Source: Acidobacteriota bacterium
Lineage (GTDB): Bacteria; Acidobacteriota; UBA890; WLXD01
Assembly (NCBI GenBank): GCA_965248695.1
Contig: CBDFKD010000002.1
Span: 5,344,001 to 5,408,000 of the forward strand
Direction of reading: 5' to 3'
DNA length: 64,000 nt
The notes below the pieces were generated by a model. It ran no database searches, had not been told where the DNA came from, and saw nothing but the letters and a program-made list of their open reading frames with translations. Position 1 is the stretch's first letter, and every line of letters begins with the position of its first letter. Shown here one piece after another: positions 52,955 to 62,943 of this stretch. The position numbers and the translations under genes were made by a program.

Positions 52955-53062
52955 TGACAGGCTCTTTCAGGTTAACCTGGGCGCTCCGGGCCGTTGGCCT
53001 GGCTCTCTCTCTCTCGCCCGTCGCGCCACGTCTCTGTTTCCCTGAGGTGCCCGAGCCGCCCG

Positions 53063-54451
53063 ATGCATGACGCCGCCTCAGGTGATCTGTTCGGTCCGCC
53101 GGACGGGCCTGCCAGTCCCGCCGAGATCGATCCCGGGGCACCGCTCGCCGAGCGCATGCGCCCACGGACCATCGAGGAGGTAGTCGGCCAGGAGCACCTG
53201 CTGGGCGATGGCAAGTTGCTGCATCAATTCGCCATCTCGGGGCGCCTGACTTCGCTGATCCTCTGGGGGCCCGCCGGCGTCGGCAAGACGACCCTGGCGC
53301 GCATCGTCGCAGTCGCCGGTGACAGCCGCCTCGTCGAGCTGTCGGCGACGACGGCAGGGGTCAAGCAGGTTCGTGAGACGGCGGAACAGGCAGCTCGGCA
53401 GCGGCGCCATTCCGGCGGCCGGACCGTCCTGTTCATCGATGAGATTCATCGCTTCCACAAGGGCCAGCAGGACGCCCTCCTCCCGTGGGTGGAGAATGGG
53501 TCGATCGTGCTCATCGGTGCTACTACCGAGAATCCCTCTTTCGAGGTGGTGCCCCCGTTGTTGTCACGATGCCGCGTCGTGCGGCTTGCGACGCTGACGA
53601 CGGACGACCTCGAGCAACTTCTCCGGCGCGCTCTCGCCACGCCCGGGCCGCGCGGTCTCGACGCATCGTCGGTCGAGTTTCCCCCGGCGCTCCTGAGCCA
53701 GATCGCCGCCCTGGCCGACGGTGACGCCCGCGCCGCGCTGACGGCGCTGGAGCTCGCCGTCGGTCTGGCTCGCCAGCGGGACCCGAAGGACGCGGTTGTG
53801 AACGGAGGCGACGTCAAGGAAGCGCTGCAGCGTCCGCACCTGCGCTACGACCGCGAAGAGCACTTCAACCAGATCTCGGCGTTACAGAAGAGCATCCGAA
53901 ACAGCGATCCCGATGCGGCCCTCTATTGGCTGGCCCGCATGCTCGAAGCAGGTGAAGCACCCCTGTACGTGGCTCGGCGGCTGGTGCGGATCGCCAGTGA
54001 AGACATCGGCCTCGCCGACCCAACGGCGCTTCCGGCCGCCGTCGCCGGCATGCAGGCGATGCACGCCATCGGCATGCCGGAGGGCGCGCTGGCGCTGGCA
54101 CAGGTGGCGATTCACCTGGCGTCGGCACCCAAGAGCAATAGCCTCGAGGCCGCATACATTGCTGTGGTGGACGAGATCCGCGCAAGCGGCAGCCTGGCCG
54201 TGCCGCTGCATCTGCGCAACGCTCCGACCCGCCTGATGAAGGAGGAAGGGTACGGTCAGGGTTATGTCTACGCGCACGACCTGGCAGATGGGGTCGCGGC
54301 GATGACCTGCCTGCCGGAAGAGATCCAGGACCGGCGCTTCTTTGTGCCCGGCGAGCGCGGGGCCGAGGTCGAGATTGCGAAACGAATGCGGGCGGCTGCC
54401 CGGGCCAATCGAACTCCCGCGAACCCGGATGCCGTCGACGACTCGGGCTAG
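53063..54451 (+). CDS. rarA: Replication-associated recombination protein RarA/MgsA
   Basis: [48 protein letters not shown]. Confidence 0.95.
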
Positions 54452-56943
54452 CTGATTCCGGGTGCCCGGCGCCGCGATACCTTCTTCTTGCGGCGCGGCG
54501 CCGAGCTGGCCGCGGCCTTGCGCGGAGCCGGAGGCAACGCCATCAGCGCGTGCTCGAGAGCCTCCTCAACCCGGTCTATGAACACGAAGTCCAGCCCCTT
54601 GCGCGCCGCTTCCGGTATCTCTTCGAGATCCTTCTCGTTCTTCCTCGGCATGAGGACCCGCTTGAGCCCGGCGCGGTGCGCCGCCAGGACCTTGTTCTTG
54701 ATGCCACCCACCGGAAGCGCCAGACCACGTAGGGTGAGCTCGCCGGTCATGCCCAGGTCGCTGGCGACCCGGCGACCGGTGAACAACGAGGCCAATGCCA
54801 CCAGCATCGCGACGCCCGCCGACGGTCCGTCCTTCGGGGTGGCGCCGGCAGGAACGTGAACGTGTACGTCGTAGGTCTTGAACGTGCCGTCGGCAATACC
54901 GAGCTCGCCAGCGTGGCCACGCAGGTACGACATCGCCGCCTGGGCGGACTCCTTCATGATCTCACCGAGCTGGCCGGTGAGACGCAGCTCCCCCTTCCCC
55001 TTCATGCGAGTCGCTTCGATGAAGAGAATGTCGCCACCGCTCACGGTCCAGGCGAGGCCGACCGCAACGCCGGGAACGGCTGTCCGCTCGGCGACGTCGG
55101 AAAAGAACTTGATGGGTCCGAGGAAACCATGCAGATCGCCAACGGTGACCTCGAGAGGCTCGGCGGGAGCCGCCTCGGGGTCGTCGATACGTTCCGCAAC
55201 CAAGCGCGCGCGGGCACGGCAGATCGCCGCCACCTCGCGTTCCAGGCCGCGCACTCCGGCTTCCTCCGTATAGTCGCGCACGATCGCCGCGATGGCGCCG
55301 TCGGCGAACCCGAGTTGCTCCGGCGTCAGGCCGTGATCATCAAGCTGACGCGGTACAAGGTAACGCTGAGCGATCTCCACCTTCTCTTCGGCCGTATAGC
55401 CCGGCAACTCGAGGATCTCCATCCGATCGCGCAACACAGCGGGTATGCCCTCGGGCATGTTGCCGGTGGCGATAAACAGCACCCGCGAGAGGTCGAAGTC
55501 GACCTCCAGATAGTGATCCGAAAACGTATCGTTCTGCTCCGGATCCAGCACCTCCAGCAGAGCAGAGGACGGATCGCCGCGGAAGTCCTGGCCGACCTTG
55601 TCGATCTCGTCGAGCATGAACACCGGGTTCATCGACGCGGCGCGCTTGATTCCCTGGATCACGCGGCCAGGCATCGCACCCACATAGGTGCGCCGATGGC
55701 CGCGGATCTCCGCTTCGTCGTGCACGCCCCCGAGTGAAAGCCGCACGAACTCACGCCCGAGAGCCGCCGCGATCGAGCGACCCAACGACGTCTTGCCCAC
55801 TCCGGGGGGGCCGATGAAGCAGAGGATGGGTCCGCGCTTGTCGGGCTTGAGCTTGCGCACGGCCAGGTACTCGATAATCCGCTTCTTCACCTTTTCCAGG
55901 TCGTAGTGATCCTGGTCGAGAAGCTCTGCGGCGGTCTTCAGATCGAGATTGTCCTCGGTGTACGTGCCCCACGGCATGTCGAGAATCCACTCGAGATAGG
56001 TTCGCAACACGTGGTGCTCGGCAGCGGCCGGCGACATCCGAGCCAGCCGATCGAGCTCCTGGGTTGCTACCTTGCGAACCTCATCGGTCATGACGGCTTC
56101 GTCGATACGGCGACCGAGCCGTTCGATCTCGGCGTCGTCCTCTTCCTCCCCGAGCTCCCGCTTGATGGCTCGCAAGCGCTCTCGCAGATAGATCTCGCGC
56201 TGGCCGCGATCGATCTCGCCTTGCACCTCCGATTCGATCTTCTGGGACAGCTCGAGCACCTGGACCTGATGCGTGAGCTGCCCGAGCAACACGGTGAGCC
56301 GGTCCGCTACGGAGACCGTTTCCAGCACCCGTTGCTTGTCGTCGACACTGGTGGCGATATGAGCTGCGATGATGTCGACCATGTCACCGGAGCGAGCCGC
56401 CGCCCTCGCCAACCCCTCGAGCTCCGACGGTAGGTTGGGCGACAGCTCGATGAGCTGACGCAAGAGACGCATGGCGCTGACGCGCTTCGCCTCCATCTCG
56501 ACGGTTAGGGATCCTGGCTTCTCCGGTACCTCGAGCCATGCGGCGTGCATGTACGGATCTGTCGAGGTGACCTCGGCGAGGCGCAGGCGTTGGACGCCCT
56601 GGACGATGACGTTGAGGTTGCCGTTCGGCAGCTTCAGAACCTTCACCAGGCGCGCCAGCGTCGCCACCTCGTGCAGATCATCCGCCAGCGGCTCCTCTAT
56701 CTGGGCGTCGCGCAAAGCGGTGACCGCCACCAGCCGATCGTTGTCGAGGGTCTCCGTGACCAGCTGCTGTGAGGGCTCCCTGCCGACGAGCACCGGCATG
56801 ACGACGCCCGGAAACAACACCGACCCACGTAGCGGCAACACGGGCAGCGTCGCCGGGAACTCGATGTCTGTTTCCGCCGGGTAACCGAGCTCCTGCTGGA
56901 TCTCGGCGTCCAGATTGCTGTCGAACGGATCGGAATCAGCCAT
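54448..56943 (-). CDS. lon: ATP-dependent protease La (Lon)
   Basis: [20 protein letters not shown] (Ser) and GGIKNK (Lys) dyad. Confidence 0.97.
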
Positions 56944-57056
56944 TTCTCGTTGTTCGCTCTCTCGATTGGGCGCCGGTAGCAGCTACCCTCGCGGATATCG
57001 TACCGCGCCCCATTCGTCCGTATAGCGCAGCGCCGCTCAGCCGCACGCTGCAGAGG

Positions 57057-57980
57057 TCATTCCTTCTCTCGGCGTGGATCGTACGGGTGCTCGTCGCGCA
57101 ATTGCCGCATCACCTGCAGCATCGACTCGTCGAGGGTGGTCGGCAGGGCAATCGACACCTTGGCCATGAGATCGCCCGCCCCACCGGTAGCGCGCGGCGC
57201 GCCCCTGCCACTCACACGAAATACCTGTCCGTTTACCGTCCCGGCGGGAAGATTGATCGCAGTGGTGCCATCGAGAGTCGGAACCTTGACGTGCCCACCG
57301 AGCGCGGCCTCGTAGATCGTGACCGGTAGATCGGTGTGCAGATCGTCGCCGACGAGACGAAACTGCGGGTGGCTGGCGATGCCGACCTCGACGTACAGGT
57401 CGCCACTCCCGCCGCCATTCGAGCCGGCCGCTCCCTTGCCTCGCACGCGCACTTTGGTCCCGGGGCGCACCCCGGCGGGAATACGCACCCGCGTGCGGCA
57501 AGCCTTGCCGTTGTCCGCCCGGTAGCTGATGACGCGCTCCGCGCCGTTGATCGCGTCCTCGAGACCGAGGTCGACACGCACCTGGACATCGCGCCCGCGG
57601 GAGGGAGGTGCTTGACGAGGGCGCGGGCCACCGAAGGGGCCACTCGAGCCCAGGCCACCGAGCAGGTCCTCGATGTTGAATCCACCGACCGAGAAACCTC
57701 CGCCGCCGAAGAACTGGCCGAACTGCTCCGAGAACCCCGAAGCGTCGAAGTCACGCGCGAACGCCTCGTGACCGACCTGGTCGTATTTCTTCCGCCGCTC
57801 AGCCTCCCCGACGACATGGTAGGCCTCCGAGATCTCCTTGAACCGATCCTCGGCCTTGGCATCGCCCGGGTTGACATCGGGGTGCCACTTGCGCGCCAGT
57901 TTCCGATAGGCGCGCTTGATCTCTTCGGCGGTTGCCGTCTTCGCGACGCCGAGAACAGCGTAGTAGTCCTTGCGAGCCAT
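57057..57980 (-). CDS. DnaJ class II chaperone (CbpA-like, no zinc finger)
   Basis: DYYAVLGV, HPD motif, G/F-rich region, DnaJ C-terminal domain; no CxxCxGxG repeats. Confidence 0.92.
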   Translation of the reverse strand: MARKDYYAVLGVAKTATAEEIKRAYRKLARKWHPDVNPGDAKAEDRFKEISEAYHVVGEAERRKKYDQVGHEAFARDFDASGFSEQFGQFFGGGGFSVGGFNIEDLLGGLGSSGPFGGPRPRQAPPSRGRDVQVRVDLGLEDAINGAERVISYRADNGKACRTRVRIPAGVRPGTKVRVRGKGAAGSNGGGSGDLYVEVGIASHPQFRLVGDDLHTDLPVTIYEAALGGHVKVPTLDGTTAINLPAGTVNGQVFRVSGRGAPRATGGAGDLMAKVSIALPTTLDESMLQVMRQLRDEHPYDPRREKE

Positions 57981-58032
57981 CTAGCAAGCCGTGGTGAAAG
58001 GGCGGTGGGTCATGAGGTCAGCCCTGCCCATT

Positions 58033-60654
58033 CTAGGCCGCTGCGTCAGCGGTGACAGCGTCGGCCACCTTGCGGAACGCGAGCACGGACGTCGTCGGGT
58101 CAGCATCCACCCGCACCCGATCACCTTCGGTGTATTCGCCCGACAGGATGGCCTGCGCCAGCGGGTTCTCGACGAGTTGTCGAATGACACGCTTGAGTGG
58201 ACGAGCCCCGTACGCCGGATCATAGCCCCGCTCCGCCAGCAGCGCTTCGGCGGCGGTGGTGAACTCGATGTCGAGATTGCGCTCCGCCACCCGCATCGCC
58301 AGCTGGTCGAGCTGAATGCGCACGATCTCCCGTAGATGCGCTGCCGATAGCACCGAGAAGACGATGGTCTCGTCGACGCGGTTGACGAATTCCGGGCGGA
58401 ACGTTTGCCGGACGGCGTCCATGACAGCCGCCTCGACCCTCTCGATCCCTATCTCGTCGACCCGTTGTAGGTGTTCGCTGCCGAGATTCGAGGTCATGAT
58501 GATGACGCTGTTCGAGAAGTCGACGGTGCGTCCCTTGCCGTCAGTCAACCGACCGTCATCGAGGATCTGGAGAAGGATGTTAAAGACGTCGGCATGTGCC
58601 TTCTCGATCTCGTCGAGCAGAATGACCGAGTACGGACGACGGCGAACCGCCTCGGTCAGGAAGCCACCCTCCTCGTGCCCGACATAGCCCGGCGGCGCCC
58701 CGATCATGCGTGCTACGGTGTGGCGCTCCATGTACTCCGTCATGTCGAGTCGAATCATGGCCTCGTCGCTATCGAACATGAACTCCGCCAGTGCCTTCGC
58801 CAACTCGGTCTTGCCGACGCCGGTCGGACCGAGGAACATGAAGGATCCGTACGGACGACCGGGCTCCTGCAATCCGGCGCGGGCGCGGCGGATAGCGTCC
58901 GATACGGCGGCTACAGCCGTCTCTTGTCCGACCACGCGTCGGTGAAGACGAGCCTCCATCTCGAGTAGCTTCTCGACCTCCCCTTCGATCAGCTTGCTGA
59001 CCGGAATGCCGGTCCACCGCGACACAACGCCGGCGACGTCCTCGGCGTCGACTTCCTCCTTGAGCATCGCGTTGCCGTCGCCGTGCAGTTCCTCCAGCCG
59101 ACGATGCGACGTCTCGAGCTCCGCCTCTGCATCGCGAACGACGCCGTAGCGCAGCTCCGCGGCGCGCGCCAGATCACCGTCGCGCTCGGCGCGATCCGCC
59201 TCGGTGCGCGCCTCCTCGATCCGCCGCTTGAGCTCCTGGATGCCACGCACGTGTCGGACCTCGTCGTCCCACCGCGCCCGCAGGTCTTCGTGCTCTGCCG
59301 CCAGGACGCCGAGATCTTCCTCGAGCACGCTCAGACGTTCACGGGAAGCATCGTCGTCTTCGTTGCGCAGCGCCTCACGCTCGATCTCCATCTGGCGGCG
59401 GCGGCGTTCGATCTCGTCCAACGGGGCCGGCATGCTATCGATCTCCACGCGCAGGAGCGCTCCGGCCTCATCCATCAAATCGATCGCCTTGTCCGGCAAG
59501 AATCGGTCGCTGATATAGCGATGAGAAAGCGTCGCCGCGGCGATCAGCGCGGCGTCACGAATCCGTACGCCGTGGTGAACCTCGTAACGTTCCTTCAGAC
59601 CTCGGAGGATCGAGATGGTTTCTGCTACGCCGGGCTCTTCGACCCGCACCGGCTGGAACCGCCGCTCGAGCGCCGGGTCTTTCTCGACGTGCTTTCGGTA
59701 CTCGTTCAACGTCGTGGCACCGATCGCGTGCAGCTCTCCCCGCGCCAGGGCCGGCTTCAACATGTTGGACGCATCAACGGATCCCTCAGAGGCACCGGCT
59801 CCGACCACGGTGTGCAGCTCATCGATGAACAGGATCACATCGGCGGCCTCGGTGACCTCCCGTAGGAACGCCTTGAGCCGATCCTCGAACTCGCCGCGGT
59901 ACTTGGCCCCAGCCAGCATTGCGCCGAGATCCAGGCTAATCATGCGTCGGTCTTTCAAGGTCTCCGGGACGTCTCCGTTGACGATGCGCTGCGCCAGACC
60001 TTCGACGATGGCCGTCTTGCCCACTCCGGGCTCGCCGATCAAGACCGGGTTGTTCTTGGTCCGTCGCGACAGCACCTGCACCGCACGGCGAATCTCCTCG
60101 TCACGACCGATCACAGGGTCGAGCTTGCCGCGGCGCGCGGAGGCGGTGAGATCCACGCCGTATTGACCGATGGCGTCGTACTTATCCTCGGGGTTGGGAT
60201 CGGTGACGCGCATCGATCCCCGCACTTTCTGCAGCGCCGTGAACAGCTCGTCGCGGCCGACGCCGCGCCCGGTGAGCAGATCGGCCGCCTTGCCCCCAGA
60301 CCCGAGGAGTCCCAGTAGCAAGTGCTCTGTGGAGACGAACCGATCCTCTAGCTGATCGGCTTCGGTGTGGGCCGCCTCGAAAGCCGCGCTGGTCGTTGGC
60401 TCGAGGTACGGCTCGACGTTGCCGCCGGTCACCCGTGGGCGGAGCTCGGCCTCCTGCAGGGCGGCGTGGTGCATTGCGTCCGGATCGCTTCCGAGCCGCT
60501 GCAGGACGGTACGCACGACGCTGTCCGTCGGCTCAAGCAAAGCCACCAGCAGATGCAGGCCGGCGATCCCCTGGTGCTCCATGGACTGCGCCAGCGTTCG
60601 GGCGCGTTGCGCAGCCTCCTGCGCCTTCACGGTAAACCTGTCGAAACGAATCAT
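58033..60654 (-). CDS. clpB: Chaperone/disaggregase ClpB
   Basis: Two AAA modules ([16 protein letters not shown]), coiled-coil M domain (AAELRYG), YGARPLKR. Confidence 0.97.
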
Positions 60655-60668
60655 GTCGAGGGTCCTCC

Positions 60669-61304
60669 TCAGCCGCGCCGATCTCGCCGCTCATGTGGCG
60701 ACGAGAAGGGCTCCCGGTTCAGATCACGCACCACCGATGCCACACGCCCGATCACCTCGATGTCGGCGCCAGCGTCGAAGCGGCCAATCAACGGCACCGC
60801 CGCTCGACGACCTCCTGCCATCTCCAGCAGAAGGACGCGGCGAGACTGGATGCCCAGCAAAAGGTCTCCTCGGCGATGCTCGGCGCCGCAGTCGACCACT
60901 AGCAGATCGCCTTGCAGGATCCCGCGGGAGACCAGCGAGTCGGCGCGCACCTGCACCGCCACCGCGTCAGGTCCTACCAGCCTGCCGTCCACATACAGCT
61001 CGCGTCCGCTACGCCGCGTGAGGCCGCCCTCAGACGGAACCTCGGCGACCACCGGAACCGCGACTGACCGGCGCCCAGCCGTCGGACGTGCGAGGCGCGC
61101 CAGTTCGATGCCGCGCGACGCGCCGGGACGGCGGCGTATGAACCCCTTGCGCTCGATCGCCTTGAGGTGATCGGAGATCCCGGCCGCCGATGTCAGGCCA
61201 AAAGCCCCGGCAATCTCCATCAGCGTTGGTGGGATGCCGTTCAGGCGCACCTGACCGACGATGAAGTCGTAGATCGCGCGCTGTCGTCGGGTGAGCGGCA
61301 TCAT
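60669..61304 (-). CDS. LexA-like transcriptional repressor with degenerate S24 peptidase domain
   Basis: Intact LexA DNA-binding domain (LTRRQRAIYDFI..GIPPTLMEIAGAFG..HLKAIERKGFIRR..SRGI); C-domain lacks the Ala-Gly site and the catalytic Lys. Confidence 0.85.
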   Translation of the reverse strand: MMPLTRRQRAIYDFIVGQVRLNGIPPTLMEIAGAFGLTSAAGISDHLKAIERKGFIRRRPGASRGIELARLARPTAGRRSVAVPVVAEVPSEGGLTRRSGRELYVDGRLVGPDAVAVQVRADSLVSRGILQGDLLVVDCGAEHRRGDLLLGIQSRRVLLLEMAGGRRAAVPLIGRFDAGADIEVIGRVASVVRDLNREPFSSPHERRDRRG

Positions 61305-61374
61305 CTGCCCGGTCCTCGCATCGAGATTCGGCCGTAGCTAACGGCCGGTTCAGGTGGGGGCTGGAAACGAGACC

Positions 61375-61419
61375 ATTATACCGAAATAACTTACGGTATA
61401 CAAGAAATTCTTTCGGTAT
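61375..61419 (-). promoter_or_regulatory. Sigma70-type promoter TTGTAT-N17-TATAAT overlapped by operator palindrome TATACCG-N10-CGGTATA
   Basis: On the minus strand, -35 at 61403-61398 and -10 at 61380-61375; palindrome 61377-61400; third half-site CGGTAT 61414-61419. Confidence 0.8.
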
Positions 61420-61486
61420 CCCTGGCAGACCGCAAAAGCGTCGCCGATTTGTCGGAGATGGGGCTCCCGCCCTCGTGTCCCGAGCT

Positions 61487-62146
61487 CTAGATGGCGGCCG
61501 ACTGATCCTGCGGCCAGGGACATACGTCGGCCAGCACACACCCCTCGCAGTCGGGCTTGCGCGCCTTGCAGGTGTAGCGGCCATGCCAGATGTAGAGACG
61601 CGAGATGTCGCGCCAGCGGTTCTCTGGATACAGCTCCCCGAGCCGTTGCTCGATCTTCACGGGATCCGACTCGGCGGTCAGGCCCAGTCGCTGGCTAACA
61701 CGCCGGCAATGCGTATCGACCGCTATCCCCGGGAGCCCGAAGGCACCGGCGCGCACGACGTTCGCCGTCTTGCGCCCTACGCCTGGCAGCGCCGTGAGCT
61801 CTTCCATCTCGCGGGGCACTTCGCCGCCGTGCAGCTCCACCAGCATGGCGCAGCAACCCTGGACGCTCTTGGTCTTCTGACGGAAGAAGCCCGTGCTGCG
61901 CAGCTCCTCCTCGAGGTCGTCGCGCGACGCCTCCGCCAGCGACGCGGCGTCCGGGTACTTGCGGAACAGTCCCGGCGTGACTTGATTGACGCGCTTGTCC
62001 GTCGATTGCGCCGACAGAATCGTCGCAATCAGCAGCTGTAGCGGGCCGTCGAAGTCGAGCTCGACGCGCGCCTCCGGGTACCGTTGCTCGAGTCGATCCA
62101 GGATTTCCGCGGCGCGAACCTGGCTCTCTCTTCGGCGCGCCGTCAC
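61487..62146 (-). CDS. nth: Endonuclease III
   Basis: ILSAQSTD, LPGVGRKTANV, VDTH, CKARKPDCEGCVLADVC [4Fe-4S] motif. Confidence 0.96.
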   Translation of the reverse strand: MTARRRESQVRAAEILDRLEQRYPEARVELDFDGPLQLLIATILSAQSTDKRVNQVTPGLFRKYPDAASLAEASRDDLEEELRSTGFFRQKTKSVQGCCAMLVELHGGEVPREMEELTALPGVGRKTANVVRAGAFGLPGIAVDTHCRRVSQRLGLTAESDPVKIEQRLGELYPENRWRDISRLYIWHGRYTCKARKPDCEGCVLADVCPWPQDQSAAI

Positions 62147-62943
62147 CCCGCCCCTCCTGCCGCCTCCTGCGCCGAGGTGCTGATCCGCACCGCGGTGGTA
62201 AGCAGTTGGGTGTGACCCACCATGCGATGAGCCGGACGCGTCTTCCCGGGCCGAGCGAGGATTTCTCGTACCAGGACCTCCACTGTTTCGACCATGCCGA
62301 AACCGTGCTCCGGCAGCGCCCCGGCGAGCCGCTCGACCTGGTTGAAGGTTGGTGTGCCGGCCGCGAACCTGCCGCTGCCGCGCAACGATGCGGCAATCGC
62401 AGCGAGCTCGACCCAGGGCTCGGGCACGTCTGTGAAAACGGCGTCGACGTCGGGCTCCAGCTCATCGCCCGCCTGTCGCAGACGGAAGTCGAGCCCCTCT
62501 TCGATACCAGCTGCCGTGGTGTTGTCGCGCGCGAGCTCCAGGAACTCAGGCCGGCGGTCGTAGGAGTACACCATTCCGCCGGGTGCCACCGCCTCTGACA
62601 GGGCAATGGTCATCGCCCCCGATCCCGAGCCGATCTCGATCACTCTGGCGCCGGCGCGCAGGTCGAGCGCTGCGACGAGGAACGCGACGTCCTTCGGATA
62701 CATGATGTTGGTGCGCCGGTGCACCTTCATCATGCGGTCGATCCACCGAGGTCGAAGAAGCAGGAGGCTCGCCCCGGTGTTGGTCAACAGCACGTCTCCC
62801 CACGCCCGCCCGATAACGTCATCGTGCTCCATGGCCCCCTTGTGCGTGGAGTGTCGCTGGCCGGTTTGCAGGCGCAACAGGAACGTCTTTCCGTCCTCGA
62901 GCGTGACGAGCACCTGATCGCCAGGACGGATCGTGTCGGTCAA
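62143..62943 (-). CDS. trmI: tRNA (adenine-N1) m1A58 methyltransferase (TrmI/GCD14 family)
   Basis: IMYPKD, EIGSGSG, DVPEPW, NQV, TRPAHRMVGHT. Confidence 0.9.
   Translation of the reverse strand: MTDTIRPGDQVLVTLEDGKTFLLRLQTGQRHSTHKGAMEHDDVIGRAWGDVLLTNTGASLLLLRPRWIDRMMKVHRRTNIMYPKDVAFLVAALDLRAGARVIEIGSGSGAMTIALSEAVAPGGMVYSYDRRPEFLELARDNTTAAGIEEGLDFRLRQAGDELEPDVDAVFTDVPEPWVELAAIAASLRGSGRFAAGTPTFNQVERLAGALPEHGFGMVETVEVLVREILARPGKTRPAHRMVGHTQLLTTAVRISTSAQEAAGGAG

Follow-up and report, generated by a model that had tools for sequence, protein, structure and literature searches.

What does a LexA-like protein that has lost its self-cleavage site do at the head of a string of chaperone and protease genes? 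LexA is the textbook repressor inactivated through self-cleavage, and the question is raised by a gene in a 64,000-nucleotide stretch of an Acidobacteriota genome (assembly GCA_965248695.1, contig CBDFKD010000002.1, positions 5,344,001 to 5,408,000; the whole stretch is referred to here as the window), where it is followed on the same strand by clpB, dnaJ and lon. We propose, judging from sequence comparison and structure prediction, that its product is probably a dimeric, non-cleavable, LexA-derived autorepressor dedicated to the lexA-like-clpB-dnaJ-lon operon. The protein has a LexA fold with a dead protease site, its promoter is covered by a palindrome unique in the genome, and the genes nearly abut or overlap; from these observations we infer dimeric autorepression, with repression rather than activation, and a single transcript for the four genes, which are the following:

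60669..61304, minus strand: lexA-like regulator gene, 211 residues (open reading frame list; Pfam, NCBIfam, AlphaFold2, Foldseek), with a winged-helix DNA-binding domain at residues 1-65, a linker at about 69-79 and a catalytically dead S24-like domain at about 80-195
58033..60654, minus strand: clpB, 873 residues (TIGR03346, 1294 bits; cut-off 1232)
57057..57980, minus strand: class-II (CbpA-like) dnaJ, 307 residues (PF00226, 90.6 bits; PF01556, 145.3 bits)
54448..56943, minus strand: lon, 831 residues (TIGR00763, 921.8 bits; cut-off 608)

A LexA fold without the protease chemistry

The N-terminal part of the regulator matches the LexA DNA-binding domain over the full profile (PF01726, 78.2 bits, positions 1-65 of 65; cut-off 23.7). 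The Peptidase_S24 profile (PF00717) gives 17.5 bits, under its cut-off of 23.3, and the LexA equivalog model TIGR00498 gives 102.9 bits, under its cut-off of 110.95 and with profile positions 1-150 of 203 matched, the genome's two other LexA genes scoring 160.4 and 153.0 bits with the same model. No MerR domain is found with Pfam. In a protein search, about 50 relatives of the regulator (38-81% identity) are labelled with PF01726 only, and canonical LexAs carrying both domains rank after them, at 41% identity or less.

The catalytic positions were compared in an alignment of 18 family rows and six canonical LexAs, in which the regulator contributes the stretches VAVPVVAEVPSEGGL, VQVRADSLVS and SRRVLLLEMAG. 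The Ala-Ala-Gly of the Escherichia coli type is aligned with Pro-Ser-Glu, so that the Ala-Gly position reads Ser-Glu, and an Ala-Gly pair in register is missing from every one of the 18 family rows. The position of the catalytic Lys is L160 in the regulator and is Leu, Met or Val in all 18 rows. At the position of the catalytic Ser the regulator has S124; only 6 of the 18 rows have Ser there, and the catalytic Ser is therefore no conserved feature of the family. Across 48 family members the invariant or near-invariant residues of the C-terminal domain are P84, P90, D106, A116, G128, I129, L130, D133, L135, L148, G186 and R193, a set without Ser, Lys, His or Cys and hence without a candidate for a nucleophile or general base. 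A preliminary description of this stretch, made from the letters alone, had reported an intact LexA-type DNA-binding domain and the loss of both the Ala-Gly scissile bond and the catalytic Lys, all of which the profiles and the alignment bear out; its remark that the Ser motif is partly kept holds for this protein but not for most of its family. No self-cleavage of the regulator is predicted from these sequences.

The protein is nonetheless folded like LexA in prediction. Its AlphaFold2 model (mean predicted local distance difference test score, pLDDT, 85.0; predicted template modelling score, pTM, 0.58) has a beta-rich C-terminal domain, and the top Foldseek matches are full-length LexA structures, the best being 3jso (E-value 9.5e-13), followed by LexA, UmuD and lambda C-terminal domains; chains consisting of a C-terminal domain reach E-values of 2.6e-5 and weaker and template modelling scores of about 0.6, and solved LexA chains align to the regulator only as far as residue 152. 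A model with two copies of the regulator scored 0.74 against 0.00 for the best control and passed a mark that 20 of 30 proteins with structures solved as one-chain pairs also attain, as does 1 of 23 with single-chain structures; the pass may simply mirror likeness to solved LexA dimers and is no proof of a dimer. At least 48% of the contacts were common to the two-copy runs, and the pLDDT of the partner was at least 74. The predicted interface comprises residues 103-109, 125-130, 144-148 and 188-197, and D106, G128, I129, L130, L148 and R193 from the conserved set fall inside it. The LexA fold is thus retained and the protease chemistry lost.

Loss of the catalytic residues and an S24 score under the Pfam cut-off are also what would be seen in a decaying LexA duplicate without a function of its own, carried along beside clpB. 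In related genomes, however, the reading frame is open in each of the 19 full orthologs and interrupted by a stop in none. Over 11 pairs the ratio of non-synonymous to synonymous substitution rates (dN/dS) ranges from 0.04 to 0.18 across residues 1-68 and from 0.08 to 0.46 across residues 80-195, several of the pairs being close to saturation of dS. The C-terminal domain thus evolves faster than the N-terminal one and is still constrained, and both domains are under purifying selection as far as these sequences tell; the pseudogene-like ratio that would have undermined the preliminary description is not seen. Since the fold is also confidently predicted, and the operator and the gene order described below are kept down to 40% protein identity, the decay explanation is close to refuted.

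Gene order and descent within one order

The regulator family was traced in 61 Acidobacteriota genomes including its own, an ortholog being a match with an E-value of 4e-38 or better. In the family to which the genome belongs (f1), an ortholog is found in eight of ten relatives, in addition to a ninth, diverged copy in G005, and was not found in G001 (92% complete). In the sister family (f2) 10 of 15 genomes have one, and none was found in G015, G016, G017, G021 and G025 (55-88% complete). The 35 genomes of other families, among them the unpublished G047, have no ortholog, their best matches reaching at most 77 bits, the level of ordinary LexA. Among the genomes searched, the regulator family is restricted to one order of Acidobacteriota. 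Records of named collections that hold family members are all titled Acidobacteriota, Acidobacteria or uncultured bacterium; the 17 loci from these collections stem largely from the same genomes and are no independent sample.

In all 20 regulator loci, clpB lies directly downstream on the same strand, which extends to its relatives the synteny noted in the preliminary description, whereas clpB is found within 1.5 kb in none of ten ordinary (canonical) LexA loci. Here the regulator gene stops at 60669 and the clpB start codon lies at 60654, and the 14-nucleotide gap, given correctly in the preliminary description along with the common strand of the four genes, contains GGAGGA; the distance from the regulator stop to the clpB start ranges from -4 to +14 nucleotides in 16 of 19 loci. 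Among the 17 loci with 10-kb flanks, dnaJ follows clpB in 16, the single miss being a contig end, and lon is present downstream in 14, two of the misses being contig ends. The clpB gene is the sole full ClpB found in the genome, other tblastn matches being Clp-type ATPases with 35-51% identity, and a second lon lies at G000:C2:2159011-2161632. The dnaJ product consists of a J domain, a Gly/Phe-rich stretch and DnaJ_C and has no match to the zinc-finger domain, and is therefore placed in class II; no DnaJ or CbpA equivalog model of NCBIfam reaches its cut-off with this protein.

The conserved block is completed on its upstream side by a DNA-repair gene:

61487-62146, minus strand: nth (endonuclease III), directly upstream of the lexA-like gene

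In 18 of 20 loci nth occupies this place on the same strand, giving the order nth, lexA-like, clpB, dnaJ, lon. This neighbour may be a trace of the regulator's ancestry in DNA repair, or a source of read-through.

Outside the order, the open reading frame upstream of clpB was classified in 26 loci (one frame per locus, one locus being from G047): it encodes DnaJ in three, Hsp20 in three, Lon in one and an unrelated or unassigned product in 19, and in none a LexA-type protein. For 23 of those genomes, a comparison of listed positions found no LexA-type match within 10 kb of clpB. In one locus from another acidobacterial family (L186, G062:C112:32203-37767), TTGAGT-N7-ACTCAA lies within 300 nucleotides upstream of clpB, and this match to the HspR operator consensus suggests that clpB may be controlled by HspR there.

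In a tree made with a quick method, without bootstrap and rooted at the midpoint only, the regulator family forms one clade with a support of 100 in the Shimodaira-Hasegawa-like approximate likelihood ratio test (SH-aLRT), on a long stem and with an inner split that matches f1 and f2. Because the clade is single and agrees with the distribution and the gene order, the operon arrangement looks like a single invention that was vertically inherited within the order. The most diverged member is the G005 ortholog (L023:958-1911, minus strand, on G005:C2; protein P0054), a 257-residue form whose linker is longer by an insert of about 40 residues and whose C-terminal domain has diverged strongly; in this locus the operator is kept and clpB starts 4 nucleotides past the stop codon.

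Operator, promoter and reach of the regulator

Upstream of the regulator gene the following elements are found, all on the minus strand:

61379..61398, minus strand: proximal operator O1, TACCGTAAGTTATTTCGGTA, an imperfect 20-bp palindrome (position weight matrix scan; 20 of 20 orthologous loci)
61399..61418, minus strand: distal operator O2, TACCGAAAGAATTTCTTGTA, a degenerate copy exactly 20 nucleotides upstream of O1 that overlaps the -35 hexamer
61398..61403, minus strand: putative -35 hexamer TTGTAT, 17 nucleotides ahead of TATAAT, read by eye
61375..61380, minus strand: putative -10 hexamer TATAAT, which begins with the final two bases of O1

The 20-bp palindrome is present in all 20 upstream regions and takes the perfect form TACCGTAAAT/ATTTACGGTA in L016. 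A TAnnnT hexamer overlaps the end of the palindrome at the same register in every one of these loci, and TTCTTGTA recurs at the -35 position in related loci. Seven of the 20 loci, including the one studied here, have an O2-type copy that scores 10 bits or more at this 20-nucleotide offset. When a position weight matrix (PWM) is trained on proximal sites from other genera only, O1 reaches 27.5 bits against 17.0 for the best site elsewhere in the 5.9-Mb genome, and O2, at 16.3 bits, ranks fourth in the genome. A matrix from all loci gives 29.7 bits for O1, 23.9 for O2 and 17.8 for the best site elsewhere, the value for O2 being inflated because distal-type copies stood in as training sites for two of the 20 loci (L005, L008). 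The 252,671 bases surrounding 17 loci contain no additional site that reaches 14 bits, and none ahead of clpB, dnaJ or lon. In five relatives, exact matches to a degenerate pattern are found only at the regulator promoter (three of the five, the other two promoters having one mismatch), and other one-mismatch matches are about as common as for a control pattern. Since the operator occurs at its own promoter alone, the regulator looks like a local, single-operon regulator and not a general heat-shock repressor.

Two identical 20-mers elsewhere in the genome (G000:C2:703831 and G000:C2:3842689) were considered as targets and rejected: they belong to a repeated element, lie in inverted orientation and have flanks identical over at least 60 nucleotides. 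A different 18-mer recurs at seven places in G007. In G002, a genome of the same genus, ACCGAAAAATATTTCTGT (L131:1500-1565; G002:C8, near 1102706) has one mismatch to the operator pattern and sits in the promoter region of an AHSA1/SRPBCC-domain gene, which also carries TACCG-N14-CGGTA around TTGACA. This match may mark a second target or have arisen by chance, one-mismatch matches being as frequent for the control pattern.

Repressors classically sit where O1 does, in the spacer and across the -10 element. In the proposed model, a dimer of the regulator would bind O1 through its LexA-type winged helix where O1 overlaps the -10 element of the regulator's own promoter, the adjacent O2 over the -35 element would serve as a second site in part of the family, and binding would repress one transcript encoding the LexA-like protein, ClpB, the class-II DnaJ and Lon. 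What was once the S24 protease domain would persist as a dimerisation module. An activator or dual regulator that recruits RNA polymerase to a weak promoter under stress would fit a -35 hexamer that keeps only three of six consensus positions and an O2 lying over and upstream of it, where activators can sit, and LexA proteins acting as activators are reported in PMC8565304. We consider this very improbable, as O1 fills the spacer and overlaps the -10 element in 20 of 20 loci, the arrangement of steric repression, and O2 is found in only seven. An RNA thermometer in the leader was rejected because the 84-nucleotide stretch that runs from the presumed transcription start into the reading frame folds no better than shuffled sequences (z -0.48) and leader lengths vary from 11 to 113 nucleotides across the loci.

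The genome holds two further LexA genes besides that of the regulator, and the canonical second lexA that the preliminary description proposed to look for is one of them. It keeps the Ala-Gly bond within PAG, GDSM and the VK motif, and lies at L001:1465-2181 (plus strand), overlapping the start of an imuA-like gene at L001:2178-2861 (plus strand; RecA domain, 27.5 bits), the pair corresponding to G000:C2:697328-698724. A near-palindrome, ACAGACATTTGTCTGT, stands between TTGACG and the start codon of this LexA gene, and the locus is probably an SOS mutagenesis cassette with the only cleavable LexA of the genome. The other, ordinary LexA (L002:1447-2094, minus strand; G000:C2:5336520-5337167, about 7 kb ahead of the window start) keeps Ala-Gly-Gly and GSSL and has Gly at the position of the catalytic Lys (TAVGRF). 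It clusters with the ordinary LexAs of the phylum in the tree and looks vertically inherited; its Lys is lost, to Gly or Ala, in all eight f1 genomes examined and kept (MKK or LKK, with VAAG and GSSM or GNSM) in all three f2 genomes that were compared. In f1, two of three LexA paralogs, each lacking the catalytic Lys, therefore look non-cleavable by sequence, which would speak for a wider rewiring of LexA in this lineage.

The operator has the layout C(C/T)GT-N8-AC(G/A)G, and the locus L015 has exactly CTGT-N8-ACAG, the consensus of the E. coli SOS box. This likeness, the position of the gene directly after nth and the existence of RecA-independent or heat-responsive LexA-like regulators (IrvR, PMC7101444; HdiR, cited in PMC8565304) would suit a protein whose DNA-damage wiring is kept, be it through inactivation by activated RecA or another SOS component or through mixed dimers with a cleavable LexA, and would make the operon a branch of the SOS response. 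We regard such a wiring as improbable. All 18 family rows lack both the Ala-Gly bond and the Lys; in the PWM scan of the whole genome, the operator turns up only at the regulator's own promoter, and upstream of no DNA-repair gene as an SOS regulon would have it, nor at the promoters of the two other lexA genes; the imuA-linked LexA gene is preceded by a different palindrome; the recognition helices of the three paralogs differ; and the regulator family stands on a long, separate branch. The regulator thus fails four features that define LexA, namely the whole-protein cut-off, the Ala-Gly bond, the Lys and an SOS regulon, and is therefore named LexA-derived here and not LexA.

Trigger, known circuits and surroundings

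If the protein is a dedicated autorepressor, what would relieve the repression? We prefer, at somewhat less than even confidence, a trigger in which proteotoxic or heat stress acts on the repressor itself: under stress, its dimerisation domain would unfold or be cleared by Lon, and refolding aided by the DnaJ and ClpB chaperones would bring repression back. The model would follow, by analogy, the same homeostatic logic as HspR-DnaK, HrcA-GroEL and CtsR-ClpC, and it is favoured because the operon encodes exactly the Lon, DnaJ and ClpB activities and because all known bacterial heat-shock repressor circuits share this design, in which stress acts on the folding or stability of the repressor. If Lon alone degraded the repressor constitutively, the response would have the wrong sign, since titration of Lon would stabilise the repressor; the model therefore needs a step of stress-induced unfolding. 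More tentatively still, and in our view rather doubtfully, the family might represent a class of heat-shock repressor evolved from LexA, beside HrcA, HspR and CtsR/RheA, in which the dead S24 domain serves as a stress-labile dimerisation switch and the operon senses its own spare capacity.

The genome also encodes classic heat-shock regulators. HrcA (TIGR00331, 248.4 bits) is encoded elsewhere, with a controlling inverted repeat of chaperone expression (CIRCE) one mismatch off the consensus just upstream, and a second CIRCE-like site lies elsewhere in the genome. An HspR-like MerR gene (G000:C2:4393462-4393875) directly follows dnaK-dnaJ and scores 98.6 bits with NF047375, just under the cut-off of 105, the next family reaching 45 bits. 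This HspR-like gene is part of a pair of neighbouring classic heat-shock operons (L190, G000:C2:4388700-4397400), one on the plus strand with hrcA, a grpE-sized frame and dnaJ, the other on the minus strand with dnaK, dnaJ and the HspR-like gene; the dnaK promoter region is AT-rich and has repeated ACTAAG words instead of a consensus HspR-associated inverted repeat (HAIR). RpoH was not found in the genome (best match 137 bits, cut-off 323), nor was CtsR (PF05848), the genome being 96.4% complete. Within the window there are no CIRCE-like sites with up to four mismatches, no HAIR-like sites (TTGAGY-N7-ACTCAA) with up to two and no MerR_1 gene, and no HAIR-like site lies near clpB or lon; the preliminary description, which had seen neither operator type and no hspR or cbpM gene, stands on these points, except that cbpM was not searched for. 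With HrcA and its CIRCE, the HspR-like gene and two further LexA genes in the same genome, the LexA-derived circuit is extra and local, and no replacement for the classic regulators. The preliminary interpretation, a LexA scaffold repurposed as a heat-shock or proteotoxic-stress repressor, is thereby partly supported: the dead S24 site, the linkage to clpB-dnaJ-lon, the regulator's own operator and purifying selection speak for repurposing, and the single promoter with an operator speaks against a general heat-shock repressor.

Several observations weigh against a stress-responsive, operon-dedicated autorepressor. HrcA with CIRCE and the HspR-like gene are already present, and nothing compels a third regulator to act in stress. 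The fold or the dimer interface accounts for every conserved C-terminal residue, and no separate patch for a sensor, ligand or partner is visible among these residues, so that the sequence points to no particular trigger. The uniqueness of the regulon holds for one genome scanned with a PWM and for five others scanned with a degenerate pattern, and weak sites would escape such scans. The promoter was assigned by eye and missed by a consensus scan of 54000-61700, which gave a single promoter-like site, inside the end of clpB (shuffled sequences give 1.1), and its -35 hexamer matches the consensus at half of its positions; conservation of the right arm of the operator may in part be mere conservation of the -10 element. 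Gaps of 58, 59 and 303 nucleotides between regulator and clpB in the remaining three of 19 loci could hold extra promoters, read-through from nth into the operon is possible, one locus (L045) has about 2 kb beyond dnaJ without lon, and all members of the family come from metagenome-assembled genomes.

The main rival that these points leave in view is a plain negative autoregulator without signal input, which would buffer the ClpB-DnaJ-Lon transcript, reduce noise and allow a fast rise to a set point, any stress induction coming from elsewhere. An operator at its own promoter only, a C-terminal domain explained by fold and interface, and the presence of other heat-shock regulators would all agree with it. 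Against it, without excluding it, stand the stress induction of ClpB, DnaJ and Lon where they have been studied, for example as targets of HspR (PMC2687793), and the constraint that persists on the faster-evolving C-terminal domain; we think this explanation unlikely.

The proposed LexA-derived autorepressor can be set beside known systems. With canonical LexA the regulator shares the N-terminal winged helix, the two-domain fold, a predicted C-terminal dimer and autoregulation, predicted here, through a palindrome at its own promoter with a layout like CTGT-N8-ACAG. It differs in the missing Ala-Gly and Lys, the unconserved Ser and the scores under the TIGR00498 and PF00717 cut-offs, in an operator that is absent from repair genes and found only at a chaperone and protease operon, and in coexisting with the fully canonical imuA-linked LexA in the same genome. 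By layout the closest system is the ctsR-mcsA-mcsB-clpC operon of Firmicutes, in which a dimeric repressor comes first, an AAA+ chaperone is included and the means of the repressor's own inactivation or degradation are encoded. The CtsR fold is unrelated, however, no modulators of the McsA/McsB type are present here and, as stated, CtsR was not found in the genome. By targets the closest resemblance in function is to HspR, the repressor of dnaK, clpB and lon in Streptomyces and its relatives, whose gene belongs to a chaperone operon that feeds back on it (PMC2687793); the protein family and the operator are unrelated, the present genome has an HspR-like gene of its own, and clpB and lon stand here behind a LexA-derived gene and without a HAIR-like site. 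The nearest precedent for a non-cleavable, non-SOS LexA is the LexA-related protein of Synechocystis sp. PCC 6803 (sll1626), described in PMC1524924 as the organism's sole LexA, with its Lys kept and with unlinked target genes, whereas the regulator is an extra paralog that has lost the Lys as well, is dedicated to the operon it heads and forms a separate clade restricted to one Acidobacteriota order. HdiR of Lactococcus (cited in PMC8565304) and IrvR of Streptococcus mutans (PMC7101444) are S24-superfamily, LexA-like repressors whose inactivation reportedly answers to heat or other non-SOS stress by way of Clp proteolysis or RecA-independent processing. The likeness would lie in the non-SOS inputs; both self-cleave and have N-terminal domains of the phage-repressor type, whereas in the regulator the N-terminal domain is truly that of LexA and the cleavage residues are gone. 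Searches of the full-text literature, subscription journals excepted, turned up no description of the present family and none of clpB or lon under a regulator of LexA type.

The LexA scaffold has apparently lost its chemistry while continuing to serve in DNA binding and dimerisation, and has been coupled to an operon for a disaggregase, a co-chaperone and a protease. If the reading is true, it adds a LexA-derived member to the short list of protein quality-control regulators and shows a global stress regulator turned local following duplication. It would also provide a compact repressor and operator pair, with a 20-bp site unique in the genome, and this pair is open to tests in vitro or in E. 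coli despite the uncultured hosts.

Around the operon, no Rfam family was matched within 54000-62000 at E-values up to 1. A terminator-like hairpin follows lon:

54389..54402, minus strand: terminator-like hairpin, 46 nucleotides past the lon stop codon, with five G-C pairs and a weak T tail (consensus scan)

Six such sites occur in the region against 3.2 in shuffled sequences, which makes the hairpin weak evidence. A RarA/MgsA-type AAA+ ATPase is encoded at 52994-54451 on the plus strand, convergent with lon, and a TrmI/GCD14-type tRNA methyltransferase at 62143-62943 on the minus strand, upstream of nth.

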